Shown: positions 295 to 55,631, counted from the whole stretch's first letter. The stretch is 63,869 bases of DNA, filler included, from 13 parts of 13 records of this genome joined end to end with filler, not necessarily neighbours in it, one strand, 5' to 3'. The notes: a model not told the origin generated them from the letters alone. Numbers and translations are program-made.

Positions 295-2517
295 TCAGAT
301 CAAATAGAATGTTCTGACCCCTAACTGCACCACCTCTGACCAGTCACTGGGCTTGCTCCACTGGTTGCTGCCAATCTCGGCCCGCACACGGAACCGGTAC
401 GCCCCGCCCGAATGCAGTCTACTTATTGTACAGACTCTGCTCGTGTGTCCATCCACCACCTGTCCGGCCCATCAGCACAGCTGCTCGGGCCGCCTCTTGC
501 CTCTACTGCGCCATCGTCCTCCTCGGCGCCGGGGCTTTGCAGCATGTACTCCATCCGGTACCTTGGTATCGAATCTGGCCACGGGCTCGCCCCCGCCCTC
601 GCTCCAGTCCGCACCGGAAGGCCCTCGCGGGGCCGCGTCCCAGACCAGCGTGACGCTGTCCTTGGTGCACTTGACAGGGGTCGGCCGGGGGGGTGGCGGG
701 CCGTTAGGCTCCCAGCCGTGCTGCGCCGGGGCGGCCCGGATCGGGGACTTGAGCAGCGGCCTGCGCAGGCTTGACCGGATCCAGGCAGCGGGCACCGGGT
801 CGGGCTGGGCTGGGGGCTCTCGTTCGGCTGCTCTATGTACTGGGACATGGCTTGCCGGATCTCGGCAGCTACATGTGGCGAGATCTTGTCCATTATTGTC
901 TGCCGGCCCTGATCGGATCCGCTGAACGGCCAGGCACCTTGGCTGCTGTGATGTCGTCCTTCGTCGGGGTCTGCGAAGGGCTGCGCGGCTTGGACGCCCT
1001 GGGCAGGCTGCCGTGCGAGCTAAGCACCTGCCCTCAGCTCAGACGCGCTGGCCAGACCGCCGGCTGCCTGGAGCAGGCTTTTGTCCAGTACTGGCATCAG
1101 CCGCTGCAGGTTGGCGAGCGTGTTGCGCGACAGCCCGCCCGACGGCACCCGGAAGGCCCAGTCGCCCATCGCCGGCGACTCGGATATGACCTGCTGGTCG
1201 TCGGCCCGCACGATCGACTCGGCCACTCCGTAGGCCACGTCGGCTTGCGAGAGCGTGTCGCTCGTGTGGCGCATGTTGCTGTTGATTGCCTCAAGCTGCC
1301 TGGTGCACTCCTCCTCGACCTCAGCAAGGATCTCCTCCTCCCTCGCCAGCAGCGCCCGGTGCAGCGCCTCGAAGTGCTCCCTAGTCGTCTCCACTGACGC
1401 GTTCGCCGCGGCCACCACCGCTTGCGCGTCCGCCTCCAGCACCGCCTCCGCGTGCTTCACCCCCACAATCGTCTGCCGCAGCTTCCCCGACGCCTCCTGC
1501 GCCTCCAGCTTGGCGTCCGCCGCTCGCTTCCAGCCTGTGAAGCTGCCCCCTGCCGGCTGTCCCCCCATGAGCCCTGCCAGCTGCGCGGCGCACACCTGTC
1601 GAGGCTCACGGGCAGCCACCGGCGGCCGCTCAGCCGGCATGTAGCCTGGCAGCCCCGTGTTGGGCACACTGCCCGCCATCAGCGGGGCTCGGGACCGGGG
1701 GCACCTCTCGCGGTACCGCTGGCCTGCCTTCTCCATCGCCGGCAGCCTTGGCTCCGGTGGCGTGAGCACCAAGGCCTCAAGCGCCTCAGGGTAGAGGTTG
1801 TAGCTGCCCCGCCGGTGAGCCGAGCCCGCGGGCGCCGGCACCGCTCGCCCGGGGTGTTGGGCCTCCGGTTCTGGAGTGTGGCTGACGCCTGGTCGACCAG
1901 CTGCCTCGTGTTGTTGATCTGGAGCTGCCGGCGAAGGAACTCGTCCGACTCGCCCCACTGGTGCTCCCACGGCTGCGACTGGGGCGCGGCGTACGCCTGC
2001 TGGTCCTGCTTGTCGCACGCCAGCTTGAGCGACCTGCCCGGCCCTCGGCATCCCGCAGACCGCCCCCGCACTTGGTCTTTTCCTGCAGCTCGTCCAGCTG
2101 GGCGTTGAGCGAGCGCATCACCGCCTCCTGCACAGGGCTGAGCCAACCGGCGGGGCCAACCGCCACCGTCGGCGGCGAGGAGCCGTTTTCGGCCCCGAAT
2201 CCGGCGAGCGAGCTGGGCAGTCCGACATCTCGCATCTCTGTCGACAACAGCATCTCATGCAGTGGGCGGCCAGCCATCGGCTCCTGGGCGGGCGGCGGGG
2301 GCTCCGGGGTGTACGCCGGCTGGAAGCTCGGCCCGGCCCCGTGCGCGAAGGCCGCCCGGAACTCGTCCCGGTCGATCACGCCGTCCCGGTTGGTGTCGAT
2401 CGCCTCAAACTCTGATTCGACCGGCCCGACCGAACGGTCCAGCGCCGGCTCCCGGGAGGGCTCGCGCGCGTCCATCGCCGACTGGATCTCCTGGCGCAGC
2501 GCCTTCCACCGCCCCAT
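295..2517 (-). CDS. EF-hand + coiled-coil + C-terminal fibronectin type III protein (9 exons)
   Basis: EF-hand DTNRDGVIDRDEF; long coiled coil. After removing 8 introns of 35-41 nt (two GC-AG: 460-500, 1028-1067) the C-terminus reads SVTLVWD...YRMEY...LHSGGAYRFRVRAEIGSNQWSKPSDWS, an FN3 signature. Stop TGA 295-297. Start uncertain. Confidence 0.75.
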
Positions 2518-6445: not shown

Positions 6446-6545
6446 NNNNNNNNNNNNNNNNNNNNNNNNNNNNNNNNNNNNNNNNNNNNTTAATTAATTA
6501 ANNNNNNNNNNNNNNNNNNNNNNNNNNNNNNNNNNNNNNNNNNNN
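6446..6545. other. Artificial contig spacer (first of 12)
   Basis: N44-TTAATTAATTAA-N44 (stops in all six frames). Others at 11058-11157, 18060-18159, 22073-22172, 26057-26156, 29873-29972, 33481-33580, 40379-40478, 46018-46117, 50008-50107, 54226-54325, 59270-59369. Confidence 0.99.
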
Positions 6546-6757: not shown

Positions 6758-7826
6758 TCATTCCTCTCCCACTTTCTCTTGTTCGCTATGCGGCGATTGC
6801 ACACTCAAAATTAAAATTGCCCGGTGTCCGGGGGTTTCCATGCCTGCTTTCTCGATCAGACGATCTAGCAAGATGCCGCCTGAATTCAGGTTGCAAGCCA
6901 CTTGCTGCATCAACTCCCAAGAAAGAGCCGCTGTTCCCAATACGCGTGTATACTGCGATAGCCCCAGTGGCTTTAATCTCGATGCAAGCTCAGGATCGAA
7001 GTCATCTCTGTCCTCGGGCTCTTGGGCAAGTTCGGTCATTGCTTGTCCCCAAGGCCTTGCTGCAAAATCCATGCACACCCCAGAACAGTATAGGAAGAGA
7101 CCGACTGCAATCAGTCCGAGTATCAACCCACTCACAGCGCACGCCTGCACCCTAAAGCTGTCCCAAGCCAGCACGTGACCCACTGCCTCCGTTATTATGC
7201 CCACCATCAGGAGTATAAACGTTGGTGGCCCGAGTGAATAGTGGATGAAAAACTGAGTACCGCACTCCATAAGAAAGGCCCGTCGCCTCAAGATAGGGAT
7301 ACTATGGATACTCAGAGTCGCGTAGACACAGGAACCGACAGCAATCAGGCAGGTGGGCGAGAGGGTACACCTGTGCAACCGGTAACCGCACAGATTCACA
7401 GCAGGATGACCAGCAAAACCACGAAATGCCATAAAGCGTGGTGCGGCCTGGGTTCATGCTACCGTCAATCATCGGCTCGCTGGTGTAAAAGTCTCTCCTG
7501 AGCGCAAACTCTGTAGCCATCACGCCAAGCAGTGCATAGTAGAGCGCAACCATGGTCAGATTCGAGTCGGTTAGGTCCACGATCCGATGTGCATCGTCGG
7601 GAAGCATATACCTATGTATACCTCTGTTCAGAGGGTGCAATCCTCCGAGAAGGAGCAACGCGGCCGTATACCAAACCCGGCCTGTTGGGTGCCACTCCCC
7701 TAGCGGCCTGCGTTCCAACTCACTAACCTTTGCATTCAGGCGCTGCTCCTGGCGGTCAGGTCCCGCCTCTGCCTCCTCGCAGCTGTCGACGTGATGCCGT
7801 CCGCGACAAGCAGCCAGCGAGATCAT
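6758..7826 (-). CDS. Multi-pass membrane protein with C-terminal SAM-like domain
   Basis: Several hydrophobic helices across two frames joined by a 40-nt GT-AG intron (~7371-7410); tail LKPLGLSQYTRVL...LIEKAGMETPGHRAILI resembles SAM. Confidence 0.6.
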
Positions 7827-7901
7827 CGGCACTGTCCGACCCACGGGGTGCCAGGATTGCCGTTGCCACTGCACACCACCCGGCCGACTCACCCGAAGAC
7901 A

Positions 7902-9377
7902 ATGAAGACTTGGGCCGTCTCTGGACTGCTCACTCTGCTGGCCGGGGCTGCCTCCGCCCTGGGCGGGCTCGACCTGACCCCGTTCGTCTTGGCCGGGGAC
8001 CACCAGGGCGGGCAGCAGGCCGCCAAGGTGCAGTTGCCTGGCGACCCGCTCGGGCTCAGCTCGTACGCCGGATTCGTAGAGACTTCCCCGGGCCGGCACA
8101 TGTTCATGTGGTACTTCCCGGCCCAGACCGGCGAGGCCGACGCCCCGCTCCTGATCTGGCTCCAGGGCGGACCGGGCGGGAGCTCGCTCTTTGGGTTGTT
8201 CTCCGAGATGGGCCCGTACTCGCTATCGCCGGAGCTCGGGTTGGTTGACCGGCCGTACAGCTGGAATAAGAAGTACGGGATGCTGTTCATCGACAACCCG
8301 GTGGGCGCCGGATTCTCGTATCCGGACGAGATCGACGGGCCGCGTGGCTACTGCACCGACACCAAGGGCTGCATCTCGGACAATTTGTACAGCCTGGTGC
8401 AAGCCTTTTATAAGATCTTCCCACAGCAGCTGAGCGTACCTCTCTTCATCACCGGCGAGAGCTATGGAGGACACTATGTCCCCGGGCTGGCACACAGGGT
8501 CCACAAAGCCAACTTTGCTCTTGGGCAATGTGCTCAAGATTCAGATTGCCCTGCCTCGTCCTACTGTGTCCGTCCGCACCCCCCGGAGCCGGGCATGTGT
8601 CACGGGGCGCGGGCGAGCAGTGGCGATCAGATTGTACCGCTGCGGGGGATAGCGGTGGGTGATGGCTGGATTGACCCGGTCAACATGATCCCAGGCTACC
8701 CAGACATGTTCTTCAACCAAGGGTTAGTCTCGCTTAAACAGAAGGCGGTCATCCAGGATTACTGCGACCGGTGCGTGGCCCAGATCAAGGCGGGCAACAT
8801 GACTGCCGCCTTTGAGATCTGGGACGTGATGCTGAACGGTGACATCTTCCCGTACCCCAATCTCTTCCACAACATGACGGGATCCAACGACTACGACAAC
8901 TTCCTTCGGACTGATGCACCCAAAGAGTTCAGCCTATTCGCCGCCTATGTCAATCAGTCGGCTGTTCGCGCCGCAATGCACACCGGCGACGTGCCCTTCG
9001 GGGCGGGCAGCCGGCAGTGTGAGATGCACTTGGTGCCAGACTTCCATGTGAGCCTTGCTGCTGAGCTAGTCGACCTGCTCGAGGCTGGCCTGTACCGGAA
9101 CTTCATCTACAGCGGGCAGCTGGACGTGATCATCGGCGCGGCGCTCACTGAGAGGTTCCTGAACCTGCTCCCGTGGGCGGGACTCGAGCAGTACCGCGCG
9201 GCCGACAGGAAGGTGTGGCGAGACCCGACGGCGGAGGACCCAGTGTCCGGGTACGTAATCGAGGCTGGAAACCTGACGCAGGTCCTGATTCGCGGGGCTG
9301 GGCACATTGCGCCCTACGATCAGCCGCGCCGCAGCCGGGACATGATAGATCACATGGTGCTCGGCACGCCGTTCTGA
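7902..9377 (+). CDS. Secreted serine carboxypeptidase (S10, CPVL-like)
   Basis: Signal peptide; WLQGGPGGSS, FIDNPVGAGFSY, TGESYGG (catalytic Ser), YSGQLD, GAGHIAPYDQP; intronless. Confidence 0.95.
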   Translation: MKTWAVSGLLTLLAGAASALGGLDLTPFVLAGDHQGGQQAAKVQLPGDPLGLSSYAGFVETSPGRHMFMWYFPAQTGEADAPLLIWLQGGPGGSSLFGLFSEMGPYSLSPELGLVDRPYSWNKKYGMLFIDNPVGAGFSYPDEIDGPRGYCTDTKGCISDNLYSLVQAFYKIFPQQLSVPLFITGESYGGHYVPGLAHRVHKANFALGQCAQDSDCPASSYCVRPHPPEPGMCHGARASSGDQIVPLRGIAVGDGWIDPVNMIPGYPDMFFNQGLVSLKQKAVIQDYCDRCVAQIKAGNMTAAFEIWDVMLNGDIFPYPNLFHNMTGSNDYDNFLRTDAPKEFSLFAAYVNQSAVRAAMHTGDVPFGAGSRQCEMHLVPDFHVSLAAELVDLLEAGLYRNFIYSGQLDVIIGAALTERFLNLLPWAGLEQYRAADRKVWRDPTAEDPVSGYVIEAGNLTQVLIRGAGHIAPYDQPRRSRDMIDHMVLGTPF

Positions 9378-11057: not shown

Positions 11058-11157
11058 NNNNNNNNNNNNNNNNNNNNNNNNNNNNNNNNNNNNNNNNNNN
11101 NTTAATTAATTAANNNNNNNNNNNNNNNNNNNNNNNNNNNNNNNNNNNNNNNNNNNN

Positions 11158-12037
11158 GAAGAAGAAGAAGAAGAAGAAGAAGAAGGAACAGCCGCGGGCC
11201 GAGCCGGCTTCCGCGGACTGCGTCGAGCCGAGTTGTGCGGAGCAGTCCGGGCCGGAGCCGGTGACCGGCAAGCCTGGCAAGCGCCTGCGCAAGCGGGACC
11301 GCTGGAACAAGCCCGAGCAGAGTGCCCGACGCCACCCGTTCGAGGCCGACATAACCGACCACGCTGAGACGCCCCAGTCGGCTTACCAGGACCTCGCGCC
11401 GCTGCTGCACCAGCTCGCCAGGGCCAGAGGGGTTACGGGCCGGGCGCTCCCGATTTGGGACCCGTACTACTGCGAAGGAAGCGTGGTCCGGCGGCTGGCC
11501 GGTCTAGGGTTCTGTGCCGTGATCAACAGGAATGTAGACTTCTACACTTCTCCAGCCCCGGCGCATGAGGTGATGGTGACCAACCCTCCCTTCTCGGGCG
11601 CCCACCTGCAGCGGATCGTACAGTTCTGCGCCGGCCGAGACACGCCGTTTGCGTTGTTGATGCCCTCGTTCGTGCTGGGCAAGCCCGTGTGGCAGAGCCT
11701 GGTGGGTCAGATGGATCCAAAGCCGTTCTACGTGGTGCCCCACCGCCGGTACAATTTCCTACCCCCCTCCTGGGCCATCCGCAGCCAGACTGGCGCGGCC
11801 AGCACCTCGCCGTTCGCCACCTTCTGGTATTGCTGGATGCCAAAGTCTGTTGACTTTCGGTCGACACAGTGGGACAAGAGCCGAGTGGCCACGTTCTGGT
11901 CGCTGGAGGCGGTGCCGTCTGAGCATCGGGACGTGACTGACGCAGCCAAGAAGCGGCCGAATCCCAAGATGAGGAAAAAGCTGGCAGCCAAGCGCAAGAA
12001 GCTAGCCGCTGGCTATGGGGGTCGACAGCAATGGTGA
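11158..12037 (+). CDS. NPPF-motif amino-(N6-adenine-type) methyltransferase-like protein (5' truncated)
   Basis: IWDPYYCEG (motif I-like), DFY, VMVTNPPFS (motif IV), PFALLMP; poly-Lys N-terminus from a (GAA)n run and a basic C-terminal tail. Confidence 0.75.
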
Positions 12038-12518
12038 GCCGGTGGTTAGAGTGTATACATGATTGTACGGTTGTACGAGTACGAGTGCAGTACTCTCCGT
12101 GCTACACATTGTGAAGCTCACGATTGAGATTTCGTGGACATCTACTACTCGTACTGTGGGAGTCAATAAATTTTATACAAGTAAACATTTTAGTTTGTGA
12201 TTGAGAATGAGATCTTGATTTCAAAATAACGTGCTTTCCACGGGTGGTTTCTCAACTTAGCCTGTCAAGTCCGGCTTCGTGATCATGGTGGGAAAGCTAT
12301 AGATTCCGGAGAAGTTTTTGTTCGTATGTGTTCGCGCCGGGAGCGCCGGGAGCAAAGATGGGAACAGGCCAGTTCCCGGAGATTCTGGACGCTCGCCCTC
12401 GGGAACCACTATTTCACATTCCCATGCGTCATTTACTGGAACATTCACTAGAACATTTATGGGAAAATTCAAGGAATTCGACAAGTCTGGACCCGGAGCG
12501 ATGCTCCCAACGGACAAA

Positions 12519-12880
12519 ATGCTCAGAGCACTGCGGCGGAGCCCAGTGGCCAAGGCCCCTCTGGGAGTGGGCGAGATGGTCGGCGGGCCAGGCGGGTGGC
12601 CAGCGAGCCCGGGCCAGGTCGTGATCGGGGTGGTGGCCGCGGTCATGCTTGGGGGGCCCAAGGCGGTCCGGGACAGCCGGGGGGCCGGGCGGCAGCGGGG
12701 GCTAGGTGTTGCCCAAGGTGGCCCAGTTCACAAAGAACCTCAAAGAGGCGGTGGAGGACGCCTCAAAGGCTGGCGCACCGCAGCAATCCGGGGTGAGCTC
12801 TTCGGCGCTCTGGGGCGAGCGGAGGGCAGGGGGCGGACGGAGCGGAGAAGCCTGGGGATAAGCCAGATTCGAAGACCTAG
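12519..12880 (+). CDS. TatA/TatB-family twin-arginine translocase subunit with putative mitochondrial presequence (4 exons)
   Basis: Exons 12519-12578, 12618-12662 (or 12665), 12706-12792, 12830-12880 give MLRALRRSPVAKAPLGVGEMVVIGVVAAVMLGGPK(A)VLPKVAQFTKNLKEAVEDASKAGAPQQSGGADGAEKPGDKPDSKT*: Glu-containing short TM, GP hinge, amphipathic helix. Alternative ATG at 12501. Confidence 0.75.
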
Positions 12881-13143
12881 CTGACGGGGGTATGAGGAGG
12901 GGCGGCATTGCGTGCCAGCTGGATAGCGCACACGGGTGCGGCGGAATATAGTGGACCATCACTGTACTATTACACTATCATATTGCATGTAATAAGTATT
13001 GCAATTCTTCCAGTGCGCTCATGTCGAGTTCGAGTACTTACAATACGTATGACTTTATCAACACCTCCACCCACCGGCACAGTACGCAGGTCCAGACGAT
13101 CCCGGACCGGCCTACTCGTGCGGCTACTTCTCCCCCAATAGCT

Positions 13144-13641
13144 CTACTCATCCTCGGGCTCGCTTTCATGCTCGCTTTGGACCAGGCAAAGCCGATGAAG
13201 CTCGTATGGAGCCCCGGGGACCAGCCACTCGCGCCGGTGCTCCAAACGGCCGTACCCTCGCACCGTCTCGATCCTGTGCTGCCCGAGATCGTCCGTTAGA
13301 TCGCTCCGCTTCCCGACCACCACCGCCAGTCCGTCCGGCCGCTCGTCCAGCCAGTCCGACACAGCCTCGGCCCACCACCCGCCGTCCCAGGGGGCAGGCC
13401 CCACCACGAGCAGCACGCTGCACTCGCCCGCGTACCGCCGCACCGCCGCCCCCGCCTCCAGCCGCTCCACCCCGGCCGCGGCTTGGAGGTCTGTAGCCCG
13501 CACGGTCAGCCCAAGCTCGTCCTGGATCGCAGCGGACAGCGCCCCGTCCCCGGCCCCACACTCGAGCAGGGCGCGGTCCGACGGTCGGATCTGCCGGCCG
13601 ACCGCCCTGAGCACCACCCGATGGGCCGAGGCGTTGCCCAT
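13144..13641 (-). CDS. Small class I SAM-dependent methyltransferase-like protein
   Basis: LLECGAGDGALS (motif I) and VRATD (motif II); 165 aa; intronless; ATG directly after the BBIP1 stop. Confidence 0.65.
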   Translation of the reverse strand: MGNASAHRVVLRAVGRQIRPSDRALLECGAGDGALSAAIQDELGLTVRATDLQAAAGVERLEAGAAVRRYAGECSVLLVVGPAPWDGGWWAEAVSDWLDERPDGLAVVVGKRSDLTDDLGQHRIETVRGYGRLEHRREWLVPGAPYELHRLCLVQSEHESEPEDE

Positions 13642-13830
13642 TTAGTTGGGTTCGGGAGGCTGCTGGGAGGCGAGGTTTGCGGCTACGGTCTCCATCTGCT
13701 CGATCTTCTGGAGGGTGACCGACTTGAGCGGCATGATCTTGGGCTTGCACAGCACCTCGCTCAGGTTGCCCTTCTCCGAGTACACCAGCCCCGCTTTTGG
13801 AAGCACCTCCGTCGGCTTGGCAGCATCCAT
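13642..13830 (-). CDS. BBIP1: BBSome-interacting protein 1 (BBS18/BBIP10)
   Basis: EVLPKAGLVYSE...VLCKPKIMPLKSVTLQKIEQM matches the BBIP10 core (EVLPKxG...VLCKPKLLPLKSLTLEKLE). Confidence 0.92.
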   Translation of the reverse strand: MDAAKPTEVLPKAGLVYSEKGNLSEVLCKPKIMPLKSVTLQKIEQMETVAANLASQQPPEPN

Positions 13831-13877
13831 GGATATCGGGCTTGTTGAGCTCAAAATAACGGAATTTTTTTGAGTCC

Positions 13878-15520
13878 ATGGCGCTGGTGGTCGACCTCTC
13901 CGCCCCTGCCGGCCCTGCGGCGGCGGCGGCCACGGGGCCGGGGCAGGCCCAGGCGCCCAGCCGGCCGGCCGACGAGTAGCCCCCGCTGCGGGGCTGGTCT
14001 CACCCGGCCGCAGGCTGGCCGCCAGCCAGGCTGACCTGTTTGTGGCCGTGTCGGAAGGCGACGCGCCCCGGATGCAGAAGGCGCTCGCCCTGCTCGGTGC
14101 CCGCCGGCCCCGGGCGCGGGCGAGCCGGCCGGCAGACTACCCAGTGGACTGCTTCAACCAGGACAGCATGAGCCCGCTGGCAGTGGCCGCAGTGTCGGGA
14201 CACCATAAGGCGCCCGGGCTGCCCGGGTGCCCCGCCGACGGGAGTCAGGTGATAGAGCGGCTCATTCGACCGTTCGGGACTAAGCCCGGGGCCGACGTGG
14301 ACACCCGGAACCGGGGCGGCGCCACCGCGCTGATGTTCGCCGGTGCGGCCGGCCTGGGGGTAGGCCGGGAGCAGGAGGGGCAGTGTGGCACGGGCGGCGG
14401 CAGTGCGCGCAGGCAGCGGGCGGGCGGGGAATGAATGAGTCTTGGGCAGGTGCTGTTGGACCACGGGGCCGACTGCCAGGCGGTGGATGAGGAGGGGATG
14501 ACCGCGCTCATGTGGGCGTTAACTGCAGAGCAGGAAGCCATAATCGAGGCGCGACCAATGCCCCCGACTGCTGGCGAGCGAGCGGGGCAGATGCTGCTCC
14601 CGTGGGACAAGGGCAGCCTCCAGACGGCCGCCGAGTGCGGGTACATCGAGATGGTCTCCGGTGCCCCGCGCTGCGGGCGCCCGGCTGACGAGCCGGCAGC
14701 GTTGCTGGATCGAGGGCTGGGCGTGGATAGTCTGGATGCCGAGGGGAACACAGCGCTGCTCCGGCTGGCCATGTCAACGCTTCATTTCGACCAAGAGGAC
14801 TGGGCCGAGGTGGAGACTAGCGGGGCGGTGGCAGAGCTGCTAGTGGCGGCGAACGCAAACCTTGAAGCGAGCGACCCTTTGTACGAACAGACGGCTCTCG
14901 GATGGGCGCTCAAGACGTGTAAGCCACGGCTGGCCGAGAGGCTGAGGCAGCTTGGGGCGGACGTTGAGGGACACGCAGCCCAGCGGTACAGGGTGCGCGG
15001 CCAGACAATGCTGATCAGCACTGTGACCGAGCTGCTGGAGCCGTCGACAGACTCCCCTTACGATGTAAGTGCTCTGCCCATAGTCTTGGCCAGACACCGG
15101 CCGCAGGTGTGGCCGCTCCCGCTCAGGGTGGTGGCCGAGAAGTACCTGCCAGGGCTGGTGGAGCAGCAGATTCGGATGGGAGCTCGTGTGGAGGAGATTG
15201 ACAGCGCAGGCCGGTCATGTCTGATGCATGCAGCGGCGCTCGGGGCTCAGGACGTTGTCGAAAAGCTCATTCAGTCGGCCCAGGTCGACTTGATGGACTT
15301 TGAGGGCCAGACGGCGCTGGTGTATGCCGCGCTGGAGGGGCACGAGAATGTGGTCGAGTTGTTGCTCTCTGCTGGGGCCAATCCAAGGGTGCGCGATCGT
15401 AACGGCAACCAGCTGTGGCAAGCGGCCGAATTAGCTGGCGAGTTCTCGGTGTCGCGGCTGATTCATGCAAATGCCGGGCTTGCGGACAAGAGTGCAGACG
15501 ACCCAGCGCATAGACGGTGA
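13878..15520 (+). CDS. Ankyrin repeat protein (8 exons)
   Basis: After splicing, canonical repeats appear, e.g. TALMFAVWHGRRQCAQVLLDHGAD and GQTALVYAALEGHENVVELLLSAGANP. Three introns are GC-AG (14210-14248, 14413-14449, 14549-14590). Confidence 0.9.
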
Positions 15521-16149
15521 GCGCGCTTCGATGCCGGCGTCTGTCCGGCCTCATGACCAAACTCAAATTTCGTGGCGATCATAATACGAGTACATGTACT
15601 AGAAAAGCTTAAGAGAACAGGCTGACACAGAAAGTCAGTTTGAAGAACTTTCTAGAGTTAAATAAAGTAACGCCGGCGTGGGTGATGGACCGTTGTCATT
15701 CATGATGGACAGTGGCTGCCCACGGAACCGGCACAAACTCCGCTTTCTGATCTACGGGCATGCGTTTGAACCCCTAACCTTAGACATTGATGAACCTAGC
15801 GTCACAAAAAAAACGCATCAATTGCTCATTCACGGCATGTTACTGCTGTTGCAGGGCGGCTTTGAGTACCGAACCTTTACGTAATCCGGGTTATATAGGT
15901 CTGTAAAAAAGAGAGACTGACCGGACCCTACCGACGCCGCCCACCAGCAGGCTTGATTTTTTCTTGGGCTTGTTTTATCTAGTACCCGTGGACCTAGACC
16001 TTGCCTCGTGTCTATGCTCGCTGAGAGGTCTGGCGGGTCCGCCATAGCTTCTGCTGAATTCAAGCTCTAAAAATAATCCACGAATGGGCCTGCGGCGGTC
16101 CCGGAGAGGTGCCCGCGCGGTGCCCCAGCGGATGCAGTGAGCTTCCAGC

Positions 16150-18059
16150 ATGACGGTGGCCGGCGCGTTCGGCGCACCTCCCTCCAAGCAGCCCAAGGCC
16201 AGTCAGGTGGCCCGCGGCCCGGCAGGTCTCTCACCCGCCGGCAGATGGACATCCCGGACCCCCTCGACCGCATCCTGCAGATCCGGAATATGGCCGACCA
16301 CACGCACAACATCTCCTCCACAGTGCCCATCACGCAGGCGCTGTTCCGCCCCAGCCCCCCCGAGGTTGCCCCCGGCTCTCCCGCCCCGGACTCATTCGGG
16401 CGCAGGTGATGTTCGACAGCTTCGAGCCGCTGCAGCGGTACGAGCAGACCCTCACGTTTAGAAACAACGACTCTGTCGGCCGGCGGCTGCGGGTGGTGCC
16501 CCCCAAGAACAGAGTCTTCTCGGTATCGGCTCCTCAATTCGCCGGTGGCAGCGAAAAGGCCAAAATCGCCCCTGGGATGGAGGTGCGCTCGCGGCCTGCC
16601 CCAGACCAACGCGGCGTCAGGTGTCGTATGTGGTCCGATTTGCGCCGGAGGAGCCGATCGACTACGCGTACGACCTGGAGTTTATCACCGAGCGCGAGCG
16701 TTTCCTGGTCCCTGTGCGAGGGTGGGGTCCACGCCCTCTGCTCCAGTTGCCAGACTCGTACGAGTTCGGGAACGTGGAGGCACGGTACTGCTCGGAGCGG
16801 ACTTTTCTGGCCAGGAATATAGGGAACAAAGCGGCCACAGTCCAGTTCAACGCCACGGAGCCGTTCTCCGTGCTGCCACGACAGATTGGGCTGCCGCCTG
16901 GCGACGCAGTTCAGGTGAGGCTCGGGTGCGAGCCTACGGCGCTCGGGGAGCACAGCGGGGAGCTGCTGGTGGAGTACGGTGCGGGGTCGGTGGTGGTGCC
17001 CCTCTCCGGGTGCGCGTTTGATGCCGAGATCATGACGGATAAGTCTGTCCTAGTGTGTGAGCCGACTTATGTCACACTCACTGCACAAAAGACTTTTAAG
17101 ATTAGGAACCGGTCAGAGGTGAAAGTGCGGTTCGAGCTCAAGGTGAACGCCAACGAGCAGGAGGATGACGACCACAGGCAGGATGAGCTGGCCAGACTAG
17201 AGGATTCTTACGAGCAGGAGCTCGCCGGGTTGACGGCGGCTGATCTCGAGCTTGACGACGAGTCGAGCGAGGACGAGGAGCTCGGGATGACGTTGTCGGG
17301 CGCGGCGCTCGAGCGCAAGTACGAGCGGCTGCGGAAACAGGTGGTGGAGGACCCTCAGCTGTTCACACACGACATCTTCGCGTGTGTGCCTCAGTCTGGG
17401 TTCATATATCCTGGAGGCGAGGCAGAGATTCTTGTGAGCTTCTCGCCGGCGATTGCAGTGGAGTATATAGCCTCAGTCTACTGCTATGTGGAGGGCCGCT
17501 GCACCCGGATACCTGTGCACATTAAGGGCCGCGGGATTGGGCCACGCGTGTGCTTCTCGTATGCGGGGTTGAACCTGGATGATCTCTACCTCAACACCGC
17601 TTACGAATACAAAGCGGAGCTCGAGAACCGAGGCGAGATCGAGGCCCGGTACCAGCTGAATCCTAGCAACAGCAGCTACGGCCAGGCGTTCAGCTTTGAG
17701 CCAGAGACCGGAGTGCTCCAGGTGGGCGAGACTCGCGTGATTAAAGTGTCCGTGCTTTCGCGAGAAGCCGGCCCATTTGGTGAGGACTTCAGTTGGACAA
17801 TACAGGGCTCGCCCAACGACCTGAAGATCCGGTTCCAGGGCCAATTTGTTGGACCGAGTGTTAGCTTTGATGCTGATATGCTCGATTTTGAGAATGTCTC
17901 CTTTGGGTTCATCAACTCAAAGATCTTCAGGCTGTGCAACGCCTCCCCTATTCCAGCCGCTTGGAGCCTGGCTGTGACCCACGACGGGCAGTTGCTCGAC
18001 AAGGAGTGGGACGTGGTGCCTAGCAACGGAGTGCTACTGCCTCATGGCAAGCAGAAAGT
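16150..18059 (+). CDS. HYDIN: Hydin, central-pair axonemal protein (N-terminal part, truncated)
   Basis: LFRPSPPEVMFDSFEP...LTFRNND, IAPGMEVSYVVRFAPEEPIDYAYDLEFITERERFLVPV and tandem ASH/Ig-like domains; introns 16365-16405 and 16583-16620. Confidence 0.9.
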
Positions 18060-18206
18060 NNNNNNNNNNNNNNNNNNNNNNNNNNNNNNNNNNNNNNNNN
18101 NNNTTAATTAATTAANNNNNNNNNNNNNNNNNNNNNNNNNNNNNNNNNNNNNNNNNNNNTCCGGAACAGGTTTCTTATGTGTACGTAGTTCCCTGCGTCT
18201 TAAGCT

Positions 18207-31462: not shown

Positions 31463-32547
31463 TTAGTTGGCTGGGAGGTGGCTCCAGTGGTCGGCGTCGT
31501 ACTGCTTGTGGTAGTCCTCCAGGATCTGCAGGTCGTCCAAGTAGCTCTGCTTGTGCCGCTCCAGCCGATGTCTGTTGAGCACGGTCTCCTCGTACTCTAG
31601 CGGCTGCCCGCGCGGCGTCTGGTGAGAGAACCCAAAGTAGTACTCGGACGGGTACTTGCTCGCGGTCATCCGGCGGTATTCGTTCTCCGACTCCTGGAGC
31701 AACTTCTTGCGCTCCATCAGGAACTGCTCGTGCTCGTTCTCAGCCTGCGATCCATTCAGCTCTAGCCGGGCATCAGCGCACCGCTGCCAGCTCGGCCTCG
31801 CGCTGGAGCAGCTCTTGCTGCCGGAGCTCGGCCTTGGCCACGATGTCCTCGCGCTTCTCCAGGTATCTGGCCCGACTCGCGCCTGCCAGCTGCGGGCGGG
31901 AGACCTCTTGTGCTCGTATTCTGCGTGCGAGGAGAGCTGGTCTTGGTAGTACTTGGCGTACGAGGTGTTGAACCCGAGCACCGGGTGCGGCACCCCCATC
32001 CCGCGCCACATCGGGCCGACCGCCTCCTCCATCTGGCTGACCGCCTCTGGCTCGTTGAGCAGGGCCTTGTCCAACGTCTCCTTGTCCACACCAGGGAAAA
32101 GATCCAGCTGCACCCGCTCTTAGCCAACGCTCCGGGACCCCACTCACCCAGCTCGCTCCCTCCGCAATCTCCTTGGGCGGCGGCGGCACCAGCCCGAATG
32201 GCGGCAGCCCGCCCTTGATCCGCGCGGCCGGCGGGATCGCGTGCGCCGAATGCCTGGCCAAACTTAGCTTGGGCGCGAGCGGGGCAGGCACCAGCTGGGG
32301 CCGACCCAGCCCGGTCCGAACACCGGGGGCGCCACCGGGGGCGCCACCGGGGCGGGCGGCTCGACGTACGGCTGGGCCGGGAGCGGGGCGGGCGGGGTAG
32401 CCACGTACGGCGCCCGAGTCTCGACCATCTCGCGCAGCTTGGCGTTGACCGCCTTGACCGCCTTGTTCTCGGCGTTGAGCAGCCTGGGCCCCGGTTGGTT
32501 TGCGGGCGGGTTGGACCGCACCGGTTCTTCTCGCTCATGGTGTCCAT
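31463..32547 (-). CDS. Spliced hypothetical Pro-rich/coiled-coil protein
   Basis: GC3-rich frames joined by several 37-40-nt GT-AG introns; no recognised domain. Confidence 0.6.
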
Positions 32548-33172
32548 GGCCGACTGAACCCGGTCGCTCTCGACTCGGGCCCGCTTGACCTCCTCCGAGA
32601 TAAACTTGGCCTTCTCGCTCGGCGTGCCCAGCGCAGTCCGGTACGACCTACCACCCCGCTAGCCACCCCGACCCCCAAGCCGGCCACCTCCGGGCGCCAG
32701 CCCAGCCAACAGCGGGGTCGCTTATCGAGGCCATCTTTCTCGCAACGGTGAATTGCCTTCGTCGGGAAGCTGCTTTGGTTGTTTTTATTCATCGATTCAT
32801 CGATTCATGTGCACTGACAGTGATGCAGACCGCCGAGACCGCGCGCCGTAGAGCGTTGCTATGCGGCTGCCACCGGGCGTTAGCCTAGTGCTGCCGCCCG
32901 GATTTAACGCGGCGCGAAACAAGCCAATGACTTATGTGCGCGATCTGTCGCGTCGACGTCGGCTCGTCGGCTCTCTCAGCGCATCGAAAAAGCACTAGGT
33001 CTCTTCATGTAACTAGAGGTGTACATGAACATACAAAGTTATGAAATACAGGAATGCCTATTAGCTCTTATTCTCTAGATCTACTACGATTCATCATGAA
33101 CTACTCGAATCAAGAATCAGGAGAAGTCATTGAATTCTGTGCGATCGATCACGCGCGAATAAACGGTGTGGC

Positions 33173-33580: not shown

Positions 33581-35778
33581 AGTAGGTTGATTGGACTCCG
33601 CCAAACTTGGTGCTGCGAGTCGGCTTGTCAGTCGAGTAATCCTCCGGCATCTTGTCCACACCAGCCCACCTGCATATGCTGAGCAGCTGGCTGGCTCACT
33701 GGGCTCACCACCACGTGTGCTCAGCCACGCAAGGGTACAGGCACCAGATGTCTGTATCATAGGCGACCACTGCAGCCGACGAAGGTGTGTGCGGGATCGT
33801 GCCATGCATGTGCCGCACGGACCACTCGCACCTGTCGGTGTCCAACACATATGCGTAGTCGTATCCTGAGTCAAACGTGCATCCGTCTCCTTTAAACGCC
33901 TTCGACGGCTTGTCTTTTAGCCACCCGCCTGTGAGCCAGATGGATCGACCGACCACCACAGTTTGGAAGTTTGTCATCGGTGGAGGCGGCTTCCCATCCA
34001 CGGGTGGCCTGATCCAATAGCTCCCACCCTGCCTCTTGTGCTTATCTTTGAGCATTGACCACATCTCGTCCATGGGCTCATCCGTCGGCGGGCCTTGGGC
34101 TAACACCTGCAGCCTACATTCAGCCACTAGCGTGGACCGAGCCACCTGGCTGATCCTGAGGCCAGTAGAGAGCAGCCGCACTTGCACCCCGGCCTCAGAC
34201 GACTCGAAAACCCAAATTTCGTCGTCCATGAACACACCGGTGCACTCACCCGGGCCTGGTGCCCCAGGGGCCGCATCCTGCGCTTCGAGCGCGACTTGGC
34301 TCCACTGGCCAAAATCATCTTTCTCTTCGCTCCCCTCTGTCGGCTCGCCAACCAGTAGCGAGATCGCCGTCGTGTCCAGCACCCGGGCGTGCCCCCAGCC
34401 GAGCTCGGGGGACAGCAGCCAGATCTGAGCTCCAATCATCCCCTGCCGCACTCTCAACCTTTTGACTCACATGCGATCCGCACCACTATCACGCTACTCA
34501 GGTCGCACTCGGGCCACAGGCTGTCGCCGGTGTAGTCGAGCGGCCAAGACTCCATGTTGAGCGGGTCGATGCGGAGCAGCTTCTTACACTCCTTGTCTAC
34601 CCCACCGAGCACGTACAACTTGCCCAGCCCGCTCACTGCCTTGGCAGGAGGCGCGTGGGCCACGATCTCGGCATCGGGCGACAGCCGCGGATCCTGCAGC
34701 ACCTGGCGGGTAAAGTGGGCCTGCTCGGTGTCGAAGCAGGTGATGATACGCTCGGTCGGAGTCACTTTGTCCGACGTGTCGAACAGAAGGAAAATCTGCC
34801 GGCCCGGTCAGCGCTGCGACAGCGTGCCAAGCTGCCTTTGGGCCGACATTCACGGCGGCATAGCGGTCCAGCTGGCACCAGCCCTTGGCAAGCAGCACTG
34901 CCGCCTTGTGGTCGGTGGTCTTGGCCGTCGGGGGGGGATTAGTCTGGTTGGTGCTCGGCTCTACCCATTCCGCCACTGCAGCACAGTCTGCCGCCACCCC
35001 TCGCAGCTGCCCCCCGCTCAAGCCAGCTCCATGGCGGTCAGCGCACCCGGCGCCGTTTCAGCGTCAGCGCGCTCTCGGCTTCCTCTTTGGAAATCAGCGG
35101 GTCGGGCGGGGGTGCCTCTTTGACTGGTTTTTCCTCTCCTTCCTCCACTTCCTCTTCCTCCTCCTCCTCCTCTTCCTCGTCGCCCAGATCGTCAGCCATC
35201 CCCTCCATCAAGCTGAACCCGCGGATCCCGTACACTGGGGCCGGCCCGTTTTCGAGCGTGAGCCTGTAATCGTCCAGTCTAATCACCTCCCCCACCATCG
35301 CCGCGCTGTCCATGCCCTCTCCCGTCCGCCCTGCCCACCGCTCGCCCAGCCCCGGATGGCCGGCGCACTGTCGCCCAGGAACGCCTCCTGCGAGAAGTCG
35401 GTTGTATCCCGCAGGAACAGTTTCATGGCCGGAGTCGACACCACCGCCAGCACCTCGTGCCGGCCGTCGGTCACATCCAGGGCCAACCGGTCGCCTGCTG
35501 GCGGCTCAACCGGCCTGATCCAGCAAGGCAGACCGTCGAGCCGACCGGCCTGGATCCTGACCAGCCGCGGGGCGCACTCGGGCCGCTTGCCCTGGCGGAT
35601 CAGAGCCTCCTGTCTCTCCCGCTCGTCCTGTCCAGAGCGTGGGCCGGGCTGGGCCGGGCTGGGACCTGCTCCCCAAGCAGCACGCGGAGCACGTCGTCGC
35701 GGATCCACGGCTCGAAGCTGGTGTCTGGCCCACCCGCTCGGGCCCCAGCAGCCCGGAGCCGCAGCCGGCACCTGCCAT
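33581..35778 (-). CDS. TPP1/Est3-like OB fold + acidic tract + Kelch-repeat protein (3' truncated)
   Basis: Spliced N-terminus FEPWIRDDVL...LDVTDGRHEVLAVVS...GEVIRLDDY...IRGFSL; poly-Glu; Kelch blades GKLYVLGG, GRSIWLTGG...VLDTDRCEWS. Linking introns 35007-35046 (GT-AG) and 34796-34835 (GC-AG). Confidence 0.7.
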
Positions 35779-36210
35779 CGAGGTCTAAATTTACAACCCG
35801 CACTCGACCAGCCTACAGCTGTACGAGTAGCCAGGTACAAAGCCGACTGTCTGTACCTAGTATTGGAGTCCAACATTTAGTCCCGCGGAGATTGTTTGGG
35901 CATGGAAAGCCTGTGCGCGATAGTACCTAAGGTACCCAATCTACCTAAGGGTCCCAGATGAAGGTCGTGAAGGTTTCTAATCGGATTTGTGCCAACTCGG
36001 CCGGCGCTTGAGCAGGCTTGCTGAGCCCGGCCAAGAACCCTCCCAGATCTCCTCCTGGGCCGCCCCCGGCTCTGTCTCCTCGGGCAGCATCCGCTCCTCG
36101 AGTGCGGCCGACACCATCGCCGGCCCGCCCCCTCTCAGGCCCGGCTCAAGAGCCTCGCCCCGAATGTTCTTCCGTTATTCCGACCGGTGCGAAGAGCCAT
36201 CAGTTGGAGG

Positions 36211-37921
36211 ATGTCGACTTTTGTGCCGCTCGAGAGCAAGCCCGACGGCGAGGAGGAGACCGAGCTGGATCCCGGGGTGCCCTCGACTGCCACCCCCCGC
36301 TCCAGGACCGGCAGCCTAGCCGCCGAGCTCCCGACCGCCGGTGCGCCAAGCCGCGGGGTGCCGCCGACGGATGGTTAGAGTTGCCGCCGAGCCGGCTGTG
36401 CATCAAGGCGGCGCTGTGCGCCTCGCTCAACTCGATCCTGCTGGGCTACGATATCGGGATCATCTCGGCGGTGGTGGTGCTCCTAGAAGACGACATGGTG
36501 TGCACCCGGCTCCGGGGAGCTGAGCGGCCGGGGCAGGGCCTGAGCCATATCGAGACCGAAATCTTCGTGGCCTCGCTCAATTTCATCGCCATCCCCGGCG
36601 CGATGATCTCCGGCAAGGTGTCCGACGCCTTCGGGCGGACCCGCACGCTGGCGGCGGCCTCTCTGCTGTTTCTGGTGGGTAATCTGATGATGGCGATCGC
36701 CCCTGGGCTGCTGCTGCTCATGATTGGACGGTCCATCACTGGTGCGGCCGGGCTGGTGGCGCGGTCTGACCCGGGGCAGGACTTGGGGTGGGCTGCGGGC
36801 TATCGATCGACCCACTTTACATCTCGGAGATCTCACCGCCGGCTCACAGGGGTAAAATGGTCACATTCTCGGAGACCTCGATCAACATCGGGATCCTGCT
36901 CGGGTTTATAATCGGTTTCGCGCTGTCCGGGCTGCCGATCGGGCTAGGCTGGAGAGTGATGCTCGCAGTAGGAGGGATAGTGCCTGCGGTGATGGTCTAT
37001 CTCGCGCTGTACGTGATGCCCGAGACTCCGCGCTGGCTGCTCTGCCAGGGGCTGAACGACCGGGCCGAGCAAGTCTTGGATGGGCTGTGCAACACTGAGG
37101 CGGAGAAACTTGCAACGATGGCCGACATAGAGATGAACATCGAGCTGGACATGCAGGCGGCCGCCAAGGGCTGGCGTGCGATCTGCTGCCCGACTCCCGG
37201 GGTCCGGCTGATGCTTGTGGTGGTGATTGGTGTGGCGGTCTCCCAGCAGACCTGTGGGATCGAGGCGCTCATGTACTACTCGCCGGCGATTCTCGAATCA
37301 TCCGGTTTCGAGACTACGTCGGAGCAGCTCGGGATCACGATGGTGATGGGCTTCATCAAGACAGGCGTGATCGTGGCCGCCGCCGCGCTGCTGGATGGGT
37401 ACGGCCGCCGACCGCTGCTGTTGTGGAGTCTGCTAGGGCTAGTGGTGGCTGAGATCATCGAAGGGTTGGGATTCGCTTACGGGCAGGCCTCACTCAATGT
37501 GATCGGACTTTTCCTGTTTGTGATTGCGTTCTCGTTCGGGATCGGCCCGATCTGCTGGCTGTTCAGCGCCGAGATCCTGCCGCTTGAGATCAGGGCGCGC
37601 GGAATGATGCTGGCCTGCAGTCTGAACCGGCTCACTAGTGGGGTTATAGCGGTAAGCTTCTTGTCTGTGGTCGAGGCGATCGGCGAGGCGGCGACCTTCT
37701 TTATGTTCGCGGGGATCACGGCGGTCTCGCTGCTGTTTGTTTATGTGTATGTGCCCGAAACTAAGGGGAGGACGCTCGAGGAGATGGAGGGCTTCTTTGC
37801 CGAGCTGGCGCAGGGCAGTAGCAAGTCACAGAGGCACCAGCTTGTCGATGAGGTCTCCCAACAAGCCGTGGAGCCAGACTTGTCTTTTAGGTCCAGGCCG
37901 GCCCCAGAGCGAAGGGAGTGA
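36211..37921 (+). CDS. MFS sugar porter (polyol/inositol/hexose transporter family)
   Basis: LLGYDIG, SDAFGR, YISEISP, PETPRWL, QQTCGI, DGYGRRP, SAEILP, PETKGRTLEE; three 38-39-nt introns. Confidence 0.95.
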
Positions 37922-40478: not shown

Positions 40479-41706
40479 CCGATCGACCGCTCCAGCCGCT
40501 CCTGCACCTGGCGCGCCTGCGCTTTCTTCCGCCGATCCGTGCTCTTCTCTGCTGGAACGGGCCGCTCTCGCGCTGTGCTCGGCCAGGGCTCGGGGGTGCT
40601 CTGGCCGCGGTGTTTGCTACTGAGAGAGCTCTGCGTCTTATGCAGCTCGCCGGCCCTCCACGGCGACACTGACCCGCCCGACGCGCGGCGCTGAGCCCTG
40701 GGTCCGGAGCGCTGCTGGCTGGTGGGTGTCCTCCACGGCGACTGGTTCGGAGTGAACTGCCGCCTCGAGTGCCGCTCCGCGTGCCGCGCAAACGCCGACC
40801 TGCCCGCGCCCGGTCAGCTAGACGGCCTGCCCGGCCCGGTACTTGGCTCGTGGGGTCCTGTCCGGCCGGTCCGGAGTCGCACAGCCGCCAGCCATCATCT
40901 GCTTCCACCTTCCGAACGGCTCAGCCACTGCGCGGCCCAGGCTGCCCACCTGACCAGTTTAATACGGGCGGCCTGCGTGACTGCATCGGACTCAGCCGCC
41001 TCGATCGCCCTGTCCACCCGCCGCATGCATCTATTGACAAACTCGCTGAATTCTTCCAGAGTGAAGGTATCCCTCCGGTCCTCGAGCTCCGGCCCCGACC
41101 ACTCGCCCGGACTGCCCGGCCGCTGCCGCCGACCGACCGCCAGGTTGAGCTGCACGAAATACTCTTTGAGGTCGGCCACTCGGCTGAACATGATCGGGAT
41201 CTGCCCGGCGCTTGCCACGGCCAGCCCGCCCGGCTACCAGTCCATGCTCCCGAGCCAGCTTGCAGAGCTCCCCAAAGTCCATCTGCCGGTTGGCCGCAGC
41301 GATCTGGTCAAAGCTGCCCCCGACGGCTCGCCCGGCCCCAGCCACCGGTCGCCTGCCCCGTCTGGTCGAACGGCCTGCGAATTCCCGGAATAGACGACCG
41401 ACCGGCCCACGCGCCGCCCGTCTGCGGGGCTGGGGCGCTGGGCAGAGTGCCCGGCAGCGCGATCCGGTGCTGTGCCGCAGCTCGGGCTCGAGCGCCAGCC
41501 GTACCTGCCGGCGAGTCGGCGTGCTGGGGCCAGCGGCGAACCAGCCGGGCGCCGCCCGAGACGAGACGGAACCCGCGGACGAGGTCGAAGATCTGGAAGG
41601 CGCCCACCACGTGCTGGACGCTGAGCGCCGCCTGGTCGCCCTCGGAGAGCAGCAGGATGCAGACCACATGGTCGCTCAGCCGCCGCCAGACCTCATTGCC
41701 CAACAT
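40479..41706 (-). CDS. Spliced hypothetical protein with EF-hand-like helices (truncated)
   Basis: GC3-rich minus-strand frames (MDFGELCKLA, FTLEEFSEFV) separated by small introns; exon structure only partly resolved. Confidence 0.45.
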
Positions 41707-54406: not shown

Positions 54407-55276
54407 TTATAAAATAGTACAACACCTAGTCTTTTTGCTCGTCTTATAAAAGGCGAGCGATCCGGTCGACAGATCATCCGACTTTTGCATGATAGACTCG
54501 AGGCTTTGCCCTCGTGTGATCACCTGGTCGATCGTCTTGTAGAGCACCTTCTTGGTGTCCTCGATCTGACCGTGCAGCTGCGGCAGCTTCTCGGCCGCGG
54601 CCGGGTCCTGATACTTTGCTAAATATTCCGCCAGCAGCGGGAACTCGACCGCTTGGTCTTCGGTCGGCATGCTGCCCAGCAGCGCACTATGCTGATCTGC
54701 GAACTTAGCCAGCAGCTGGTGCAGGAGCCTGTAGACGATCTTGGGCGGGTAGTCCGGCGCCGCCACCATCGTGGCCACCAGCCGGCCCTGCCTGGCGCTG
54801 CAGCCGTGGATGCAAAAGTCGAGCTTCGAGTGCTCCTCGTCCGGTAGTATGGTCTCTCCGGCAGCCTCCTTGAGGTGCTGAGCCACCTGCCGACTGCCGA
54901 ACCGGAGGAATTCGCCCGCCTGCGTCCTGTACCACCAGCTGAACTGGTCGAGCCGCTCGCAGGTGCACAGCACCACCGCCCGCTCGCCCTCTCGCAGGTA
55001 AATGGTGGCCGCGATCAGAGGGGTGTCCGATGCGCACTTGGCGGCGGGCGTGGCGTTGCTCGCCGCGGCGGGCGTGGCTGCACCGGTCACCTGCGGCTGC
55101 CGGCTGGGCTTGCGGCTGCCGGGCATGCCCGAGAGCTCCTCCAGGAAGTCTAGGTTGCGGCCCCCGAACGGCTGATCGGCCGGGTCGAGCGGTTCGGCCT
55201 CCTCCGCCGCCGCTGGCTCCGGGGAGCCCGGGCCGGCGAACCAGCCGTTATAAACGGTTCCGAGACAGTTCCACAT
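54407..55276 (-). CDS. YKT6: Ykt6-like longin R-SNARE with N-terminal extension
   Basis: Longin domain (DYPPKIVYRLL, YLAKYQDP), SNARE helix TIDQVITRGQSLESIMQKSDDLS, C-terminal CCTIL prenylation motif, no TM; intronless. Confidence 0.85.
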   Translation of the reverse strand: MWNCLGTVYNGWFAGPGSPEPAAAEEAEPLDPADQPFGGRNLDFLEELSGMPGSRKPSRQPQVTGAATPAAASNATPAAKCASDTPLIAATIYLREGERAVVLCTCERLDQFSWWYRTQAGEFLRFGSRQVAQHLKEAAGETILPDEEHSKLDFCIHGCSARQGRLVATMVAAPDYPPKIVYRLLHQLLAKFADQHSALLGSMPTEDQAVEFPLLAEYLAKYQDPAAAEKLPQLHGQIEDTKKVLYKTIDQVITRGQSLESIMQKSDDLSTGSLAFYKTSKKTRCCTIL

Positions 55277-55631
55277 GACCCGCACAGCCCTTGAGCCTGC
55301 GCCCAGGTCCGCGTGTGGTTCCCGGAGTTTGTTGCCAAACCCTTCTCCACGATTCAGCAAGTCGGTCGGCCGCGGTCAGCGCTAGCTGCACGTGAGCTGC
55401 AACAGTCGTCACACACACTCCGTGGCACCGAAGCTGGTCGAGCTGATCGGATGAGCTGACGAGACTCCGAACGTTCCTTCGAGTAAATTTTTATTTTGAT
55501 TTCCGGATTTCTAGGACATGATTGTTACACAAGTGCAGCAATTGGCATAGCTCGCGGTAGCTAATTGCACATTGCGGCCTACAATGTTCAAGTCCTATCG
55601 GCATGCCGACAGACGACGTAGTTACCCTGGC

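Follow-up and report, generated by a model that had tools for sequence, protein, structure and literature searches.

The locus at 12519-12880 on the plus strand raises the question of whether a small gene, split by very short introns, encodes a TatA/TatB-family membrane protein and, if so, in which compartment of a eukaryotic cell its product would work. The locus belongs to a window (the whole stretch of DNA that was analysed) of 63,869 bases, which consists of 13 contigs, each 3.5-6.9 kb long, strung together with spacers. As the contigs are separate, gene linkage from one to another is meaningless. The parts of the window needed for orientation are the following:

6446-6545, 11058-11157, 18060-18159 and ten more: spacers, N44 + TTAATTAATTAA + N44, in which the runs of N flank a six-frame stop
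11158-18059: contig carrying the Tat-like gene

Along the contigs the GC content ranges from about 0.47 to 0.68 (in 2-kb steps), and the contig with the Tat-like gene has 62% GC. The Pfam domains found in the window include HYDIN/CFAP65 Ig, ankyrin repeats, DENN, SET, S10 carboxypeptidase, EF-hands, sugar porter, PhyH, GH43, GH31, synaptobrevin, and Kelch, and a C13 hydrolase gene is also present beside those for GH43, GH31 and S10. The Pfam-positive ORFs are long and mostly unbroken. The host is a flagellated, intron-poor, GC-rich marine eukaryote, since HYDIN/CFAP65 and the other domains occur in long ORFs of this mostly unbroken kind. The sequencing runs that match the contig are two marine-metagenome DNA runs (0.06 of words), with no RNA run among them. 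Searches of the window for rRNA, tRNA and Rfam families gave no matches, and neither TGTAA nor AATAAA forms a consistent signal after its stop codons.

The contig of the Tat-like gene also carries HYDIN-like and ankyrin genes, as recognized by Pfam. The first of these, at 16409-18059 on the plus strand and running off the contig end, encodes a HYDIN-like protein of the axoneme, of which it covers the N-terminal portion. The fragment shares 62% identity with one metagenome protein and no more than 38% with any of the best 150 among 1,740 library matches; ten of these matches were checked by name, and the named ones are a prasinophyte, two birds, and a EukProt entry that bears a gene-model label only. 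This divergence suggests a lineage without close reference genomes, and the low identity serves as a lead against a well-sampled alga. Elsewhere in the window, the best named relatives of the sugar-porter gene (36012-37918, plus strand) are chlorarachniophytes (Chlorarachnion, Lotharella, and Amorphochlora) and Tetraselmis, at 42-47% identity, which may be taken as a weak lead to the lineage, or else to a gene of green-algal origin.

Other genes of the window show features of their own. The S10 serine carboxypeptidase gene at 7704-9374 (plus strand) has mixed matches in the protein atlas, where its nearest cluster is half viral by label (Nucleocytoviricota), a label that probably reflects the labelling of metagenome bins and not biology. 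The ORF at 54410-55375 (minus strand) stops inside its synaptobrevin domain, covering profile positions 3-58 of 89, and the exon for the membrane anchor must lie downstream, behind a further intron, near the contig end. Adjoining the Tat-like gene is an ORF of 292 amino acids (11159-12034, plus strand) with an NPPF motif of the kind seen in N6-adenine or glutamine methyltransferases and with no Pfam match at E<=1; a run of Lys codons stands at the contig start, directly before it.

Short GC-rich introns, on which the Tat-like gene model depends, are real in this organism. The sugar-porter gene shifts frame at 36742-36779 (plus strand), where the excision of these 38 nt, bounded by GT..AG, restores a conserved motif and gives a join that aligns without gaps to homologues of 44-52% identity. 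Likewise, the HYDIN-like gene contains a 38-nt GT..AG intron at 16583-16620 (plus strand), whose join is gapless against the metagenome protein of 62% identity. Six further introns, all of 37-38 nt and on the minus strand, were predicted from coding potential, as GT..AG segments that change the frame between two stretches where this potential is high:

41201-41237, minus strand: predicted intron
35331-35368, minus strand: predicted intron
31867-31904, minus strand: predicted intron
31745-31781, minus strand: predicted intron
2034-2071, minus strand: predicted intron
32484-32521, minus strand: predicted intron

Three of these predicted introns, 37-38 nt long, apparently belong to a single gene at 31466-32647 (minus strand), which has a strong coding bias and no Pfam match. 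Introns would thus cluster in some genes of this genome, as they do in the Tat-like gene.

Taken as controls, the eight introns (two confirmed by homologues and six predicted) run from GT to AG over 37-38 nt, have a GC content of 0.62-0.82, and often start with GTGCG. Near their 3' end they hold an A, at position -12 in six of the eight and at -11 in the remaining two. The three introns of the Tat-like gene are of the same style, with 37-40 (or 43) nt, a GC content of 0.73-0.86, and an A at -12 in every one of them. Among the GT..AG segments of the window with 37-40 nt and a GC content of at least 0.7, an A at -12 is found in 63 of 304, so that three out of three would be expected by chance about once in 100. 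We know of no described lineage with such a narrow class of 37-38-nt GC-rich introns, and a literature search for short GC-rich introns of this kind returned nothing usable. A fixed distance between the branch point and the 3' end is, according to the accessible text of one study, a known trait of intron-poor eukaryotes (PMC2483917).

The Tat-like gene (12519-12880, plus strand) consists of four exons and three introns, all of phase 0, with a coding sequence of 243 nt and a spliced product of 80 or 81 amino acids, depending on whether intron 2 begins at a GC or at a GT donor. Its parts, all on the plus strand, are:

12459-12518, plus strand: possible 5' extension, with in-frame ATGs at 12459 and 12501, no stop before 12519, GC 0.51
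12519-12578, plus strand: exon 1, with start codon, 14-aa basic leader, and the beginning of the membrane helix with its Glu
12579-12617, plus strand: intron 1, 39 nt, GT..AG, GC 0.85, A at -12, in frame and stop-free
12618-12662, plus strand: exon 2, with the remaining membrane helix and the Gly-Gly-Pro-Lys hinge, possibly reaching 12665 (one more Ala)
12663-12705, plus strand: intron 2 as chosen in the initial annotation, 43 nt, GC..AG, A at -12
12666-12705, plus strand: intron 2, alternative form, 40 nt, GT..AG, same 3' end, giving an extra Ala after the hinge Lys
12706-12792, plus strand: exon 3, with the Leu-Pro motif and the amphipathic helix, followed by the first part of the tail
12793-12829, plus strand: intron 3, 37 nt, GTGAGC..CAG, A at -12
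12830-12880, plus strand: exon 4, with a charged tail rich in Gly, Asp, Lys, and Pro; stop codon TAG at 12878-12880

The initial annotation had described a protein of about 80 amino acids hidden by three introns of 37-43 nt, and this has been borne out: the junctions are present, the spliced construct comes out on top of 176,914 constructs built from the window (described below), and the unspliced pieces have no Pfam match. At E<=10, Pfam finds no family in any of the three unspliced translations, nor in any of the seven further open frames that the locus holds on its two strands. Because the unspliced translations have no Pfam match, the protein stays hidden in a track of ORFs.

One junction may need revision. 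The 3' end of intron 2 at 12705 holds, but its donor may be the GT at 12666 and not the GC at 12663 that had been assigned to it. The combined profile gives 19.9 bits to the 43-nt GC form and 19.0 to the 40-nt GT form, and a TatB-only profile favours the former by 3.9 bits; the 40-nt form is nevertheless rated at least as likely because all eight control introns start with GT and measure 37-38 nt.

The beginning of the gene can be placed at more than one codon. The reading frame upstream is open from 12303, and the segment 12459-12518 has an in-frame coding log-odds of +0.22 per codon, so coding potential leaves the start codon undecided. The ATG at 12519 has an A at -3. Depending on the ATG used, the leader would comprise 14 (12519), 20 (12501), or 34 amino acids (12459), and the segment 12459-12518 is either a 5' UTR or part of a longer leader.

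Coding signal was measured with a table of codon log-odds trained on 12 long ORFs of the window. In every exon of the Tat-like gene the predicted frame is the best of the three, with log-odds per codon of 0.18, 0.55, 0.41, and 0.43 in exons 1 to 4 and a GC3 of 0.93 in exon 2. The exons together reach 30.6, that is, 0.38 per codon, as compared with 0.32-0.44 in the confirmed genes of the window. For introns 1 and 3 the coding log-odds are about zero (-0.06 per codon in intron 1). The gene coincides with an island of high GC (0.60-0.78), and the flanks on either side are richer in AT. Short metagenome DNA contigs cover 12564-12856 without splicing, and they differ from the window at one base, a G>A at 12611 that lies in intron 1; the other 150 bases of the first metagenome read match, and the second read (12706-12856) shows no differences. 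This cover may come from the source sample itself and gives no independent support.

The family assignment was approached with a profile made for the purpose. Of 81 genomes sampled from a single bacterial phylum, 77 had TatA/B genes that PF02416 could locate, and 60 TatA and TatB ORFs, taken from 30 of those loci and from E. coli, went into a custom TatA/TatB profile. The spliced product scores 19.9 bits against it (E 4.5e-8 for one sequence), a value of the custom profile, to be kept apart from the curated cut-off of Pfam PF02416, which is 21 bits and belongs to a different model. Profile positions 4-53 align to residues 15-61, in register over 47 residues, and the alignment extends from the hydrophobic helix with its polar Glu through the Gly-Pro hinge and the Leu-Pro motif to the amphipathic helix. 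Against a profile built solely from 80 gammaproteobacterial TatA sequences the spliced product scores just 3.5 bits; the match therefore depends on TatB and on more diverse TatA sequences.

How often such a match arises by free choice of junctions was assessed over the whole window, on both strands, with stop-free two-intron constructs that combine GT or GC donors with AG acceptors, introns of 30-60 nt, and a middle exon of 30-75 nt (n=176,914). Under default filters 13 constructs passed, all 13 at the Tat-like locus. With the filters off, 159,649 were scored, and the junctions of the initial annotation ranked first with 20.6 bits, 8.7 bits above the best other locus at 11.9 bits, which is also the 99.99th percentile. 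Retention of intron 1 lowers the score to 11.8 bits and that of intron 2 to 10.8, while the fully unspliced sequence is left with 2.4; given this loss, introns 1 and 2 must each be removed for the match to appear. Intron 3 falls outside the profile match, to which it is neutral, and is backed by its intron style and by the coding bias of exon 4. The locus is very probably a real gene of the Tat family.

The layout of the product is that of the family, as had been proposed. In addition to the profile match of 19.9 bits in register, it comprises a membrane helix with Glu, a hinge, an amphipathic helix, and a charged tail. Residues 15-33 are hydrophobic, with a Kyte-Doolittle mean of up to 3.1, and Glu19, near the N-terminal end of this helix, aligns to the conserved polar column of the TatA/B profile. 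The Gly-Gly-Pro-Lys hinge and the Leu-Pro motif are in register with the Tat family. Residues 38-55 are amphipathic: their hydrophobic moment is 0.46, while 2000 shuffles average 0.20 and 1.35% of them reach the observed value. The last 25 residues are polar and charged. Ahead of the Tat helix, residues 1-14 have a net charge of +4, no acidic residue, and no hydrophobic signal peptide, in keeping with the Arg-rich, acid-free leader that the initial annotation had recognized. The amphipathic moment of this leader, whose start codon is itself uncertain, is not above chance, as 46% of shuffles reach the same value.

Bacterial TatB, TatA, and TatE (PF02416, TatA_B_E) share the domain layout of the product, which matches them over residues 15-61; in contrast to these bacterial proteins, the gene is here a nuclear one with spliceosomal introns, and the product has a 14-aa basic N-terminal extension. 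The best single matches, with 19.2 and 18.8 bits, are bacterial (proteobacterial) TatB proteins of 161 and 130 aa, encoded by the second gene of their operon, and the words IGVVA and LPKVA are common to them and to the product. The TatB-only profile gives 17.8 bits, compared with 13.1 for the TatA-only one, a small difference when true members of either class lie more than 50 bits apart between the two sub-profiles. Median lengths in the reference set are 75 aa (TatA) and 114.5 aa (TatB). To judge from these features, the product stands between the two classes, with a TatB-like helix and hinge and a TatA-like length.

Close relatives and partners were looked for in several collections. A protein word search with the in-frame piece of exon 1, intron 1, and exon 2 yielded eight candidates, none at E<=10, and a protein atlas search with a 48-aa piece gave no usable match. 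A degenerate DNA pattern of exon 2 met one match in metagenome contigs, a false positive; as an orthologue it was rejected, being an unrelated polytopic membrane protein. When Tat reference sequences were sought for comparing plastid with mitochondrial types, a tblastn search of plasmids returned only Acinetobacter and rhizobial TatB, with E near 1, and a scan of genome contigs met gammaproteobacteria only. A working mitochondrial Tat system, as supposed in the initial annotation, would require TatC; it was not found among the six-frame ORFs of the window, where the best score is 3.8 bits, a result that applies to these 64 kb only.

The location of the gene is nuclear: its introns have the style of those in two verified nuclear genes, and its contig carries the HYDIN-like and ankyrin genes. 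The reading we favour, with moderate confidence, is that of a nuclear gene for a TatA/B-type subunit that works as a component of a mitochondrial Tat system. A mitochondrial compartment is plausible, and it is preferred because the leader is short, basic, and acid-free, because a signal or transit peptide of usual length is lacking, and because nuclear genes for mitochondrial TatB provide a precedent. Counting against this reading are the modest score on the custom profile and the presence of three introns in a coding sequence of 243 nt, which are many for a genome in which most long ORFs are unbroken.

The main competitor places the protein in a plastid, as a thylakoid TatA (Tha4) or TatB (Hcf106) of an alga, or as a protein targeted to both plastid and mitochondrion, where it would work with plastid TatC in moving folded lumenal proteins. 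To our knowledge, every plastid-bearing eukaryote has nuclear TatA/B-family genes for its plastid. The genes for Tha4 (cpTatA) and Hcf106 (cpTatB) are nuclear, their proteins likewise combine a Glu in the helix with a Gly-Pro hinge and an amphipathic helix, and mature Tha4 is close in size to the Tat-like product, all of which speaks for a plastid protein. So does the sugar transporter, with three chlorarachniophytes (algae) and Tetraselmis as its best named relatives at 42-47% identity, and so does the dual targeting reported for plant TatA in the available text of a preprint (bioRxiv 10.1101/2020.04.06.026997). However, a plastid protein of this kind would be expected to bear a transit peptide or bipartite leader of usual length, and none is seen here. 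The leader has no more than 14 aa when translation starts at 12519; from the ATG at 12459 it would have 34 aa, three of them acidic. It is too short for most primary transit peptides, and it is not preceded by the signal peptide that a secondary plastid would need. The HYDIN-like fragment, at most 38% identical to its best 150 representatives, argues against a well-sampled algal class, and none of the Pfam-scanned ORFs of the window is plastid-related, a weak point given the small sample. A plastid or dual location is unlikely, though it deserves to be carried along as a serious candidate.

A different objection grants a real spliced gene and questions its family: the product might be a small single-pass membrane protein with another role, Tat-like only by composition and layout, that is, by a short Gly/Val/Ala-rich helix, a Pro, and an amphipathic helix. 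The modest 19.9 bits, the tendency of GC-rich codons to favour stretches of Gly, Ala, Val, and Pro, and the lack of an orthologue in the protein word search or atlas and of a Pfam family for the unspliced pieces would all agree with this, and the chance of such a match at the level of one window, about 1 in 400, is not negligible over the very many windows scanned. Yet the profile match, in register along 47 residues, includes the conserved polar position together with hinge, Leu-Pro motif, and amphipathic helix; the sequences that match best individually are bacterial TatB proteins, with which the product shares the words IGVVA and LPKVA; and every other locus of the window, however its junctions are chosen, falls more than 8 bits short, which makes a mere lookalike improbable. 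Least credible, and very improbable in our judgement, is a non-functional sequence, whether arranged so by chance or left over as a decayed copy within a GC-rich island between genes. The protein collection holds no similar annotated or predicted protein and no RNA run was matched, as such a sequence would have it; against this, the locus is open from start to stop once three segments with the length, the ends, and the A at -12 of host introns are removed, the coding bias is in the right frame in all four exons, and the profile score is an outlier.

For the favoured mitochondrial reading, the following course of events may be proposed. The protein would be synthesized in the cytosol and then imported into the mitochondrion by means of its Arg-rich, acid-free N-terminus. 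Once inserted into the inner membrane, it would have both its amphipathic helix and its tail facing the matrix, and its partner would be a TatC encoded in mitochondrial DNA. Beside TatC, it might act as a TatB-like receptor partner, as a TatA-like oligomer that thins the membrane, or as both.

Organellar Tat subunits encoded by nuclear genes are well known, and the unusual point here is the TatA-like size. In the available text of the studies concerned, nuclear genes for a mitochondrial TatB with the glutamate in its transmembrane helix are described from plants, stramenopiles, and cryptists, always beside a TatC encoded in mitochondrial DNA (PMC6251230), and from jakobids (PMC7050145). The view of the initial annotation that a nuclear TatB is mainly described in plants thus stands as far as plants are concerned, but not in its "mainly". 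The role presumed for nuclear mitochondrial TatB is the insertion of the Rieske Fe-S protein together with the mtDNA-encoded TatC (PMC6251230, PMC7050145, PMC8662606, PMC13456617), and in plant mitochondria TatBC is reported to insert the Rieske subunit (PMC13456617, PMC8662606).

The gene studied here is likewise a nuclear TatA/B-family gene with a Glu in the helix of its product, a comparison made by description. Nuclear mitochondrial TatB is, however, described as longer than prokaryotic TatB and as having a long amphipathic helix (PMC13456617, PMC6251230), as in Arabidopsis mTatB (At5g43680), with 232 aa (PMC13456617); TatA/B of Ectocarpus has 170 aa (PMC3097184). The present product, in contrast, has 80-81 aa and an amphipathic helix of about 18 residues. 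Small size is also a feature of the TatA encoded in the mitochondrial DNA of jakobids, cryptophytes, and some ochrophytes, which is presumed to work with mitochondrial TatC (PMC6251230, PMC8662606); that gene lies in mitochondrial DNA, whereas the one described here lies on a nuclear-type contig of 62% GC and has spliceosomal introns. An identification of the product as an mtDNA-encoded TatA was ruled out by the 62% GC, the nuclear genes, and the spliceosomal introns of the contig.

The small size invites a more specific proposal, which we put forward as a tentative suggestion and consider rather doubtful: in this lineage of marine flagellates, which lacks a reference genome, the gene for a mitochondrial Tat subunit of TatA type and TatA size would have been transferred to the nucleus. 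As far as its accessible text goes, the 2018 survey found only TatB, and never TatA, of the mitochondrial Tat system in nuclear genomes and called the reason a mystery (PMC6251230). In the full-text literature searched, no later report of a dedicated nuclear mitochondrial TatA was found besides the preprint on dual targeting in plants.

The finding has consequences at several levels. GC-rich introns of 37-40 nt conceal small genes when metagenome bins such as this one are annotated by their ORFs, and the rules that these introns follow (GT..AG, 37-40 nt, and an A at -12 or -11) are usable for the re-annotation of the bin. If the protein is mitochondrial, a further, so far unsampled lineage keeps the bacterial export of folded proteins, instead of or beside Bcs1, and the small size of the subunit bears on which Tat subunits can move to the nucleus. 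If a minimal nuclear subunit of 80 aa truly works alone with TatC, it would be a counter-example to the 2018 survey, and a nuclear TatA-sized subunit together with TatC would represent a fourth arrangement of the mitochondrial Tat system.
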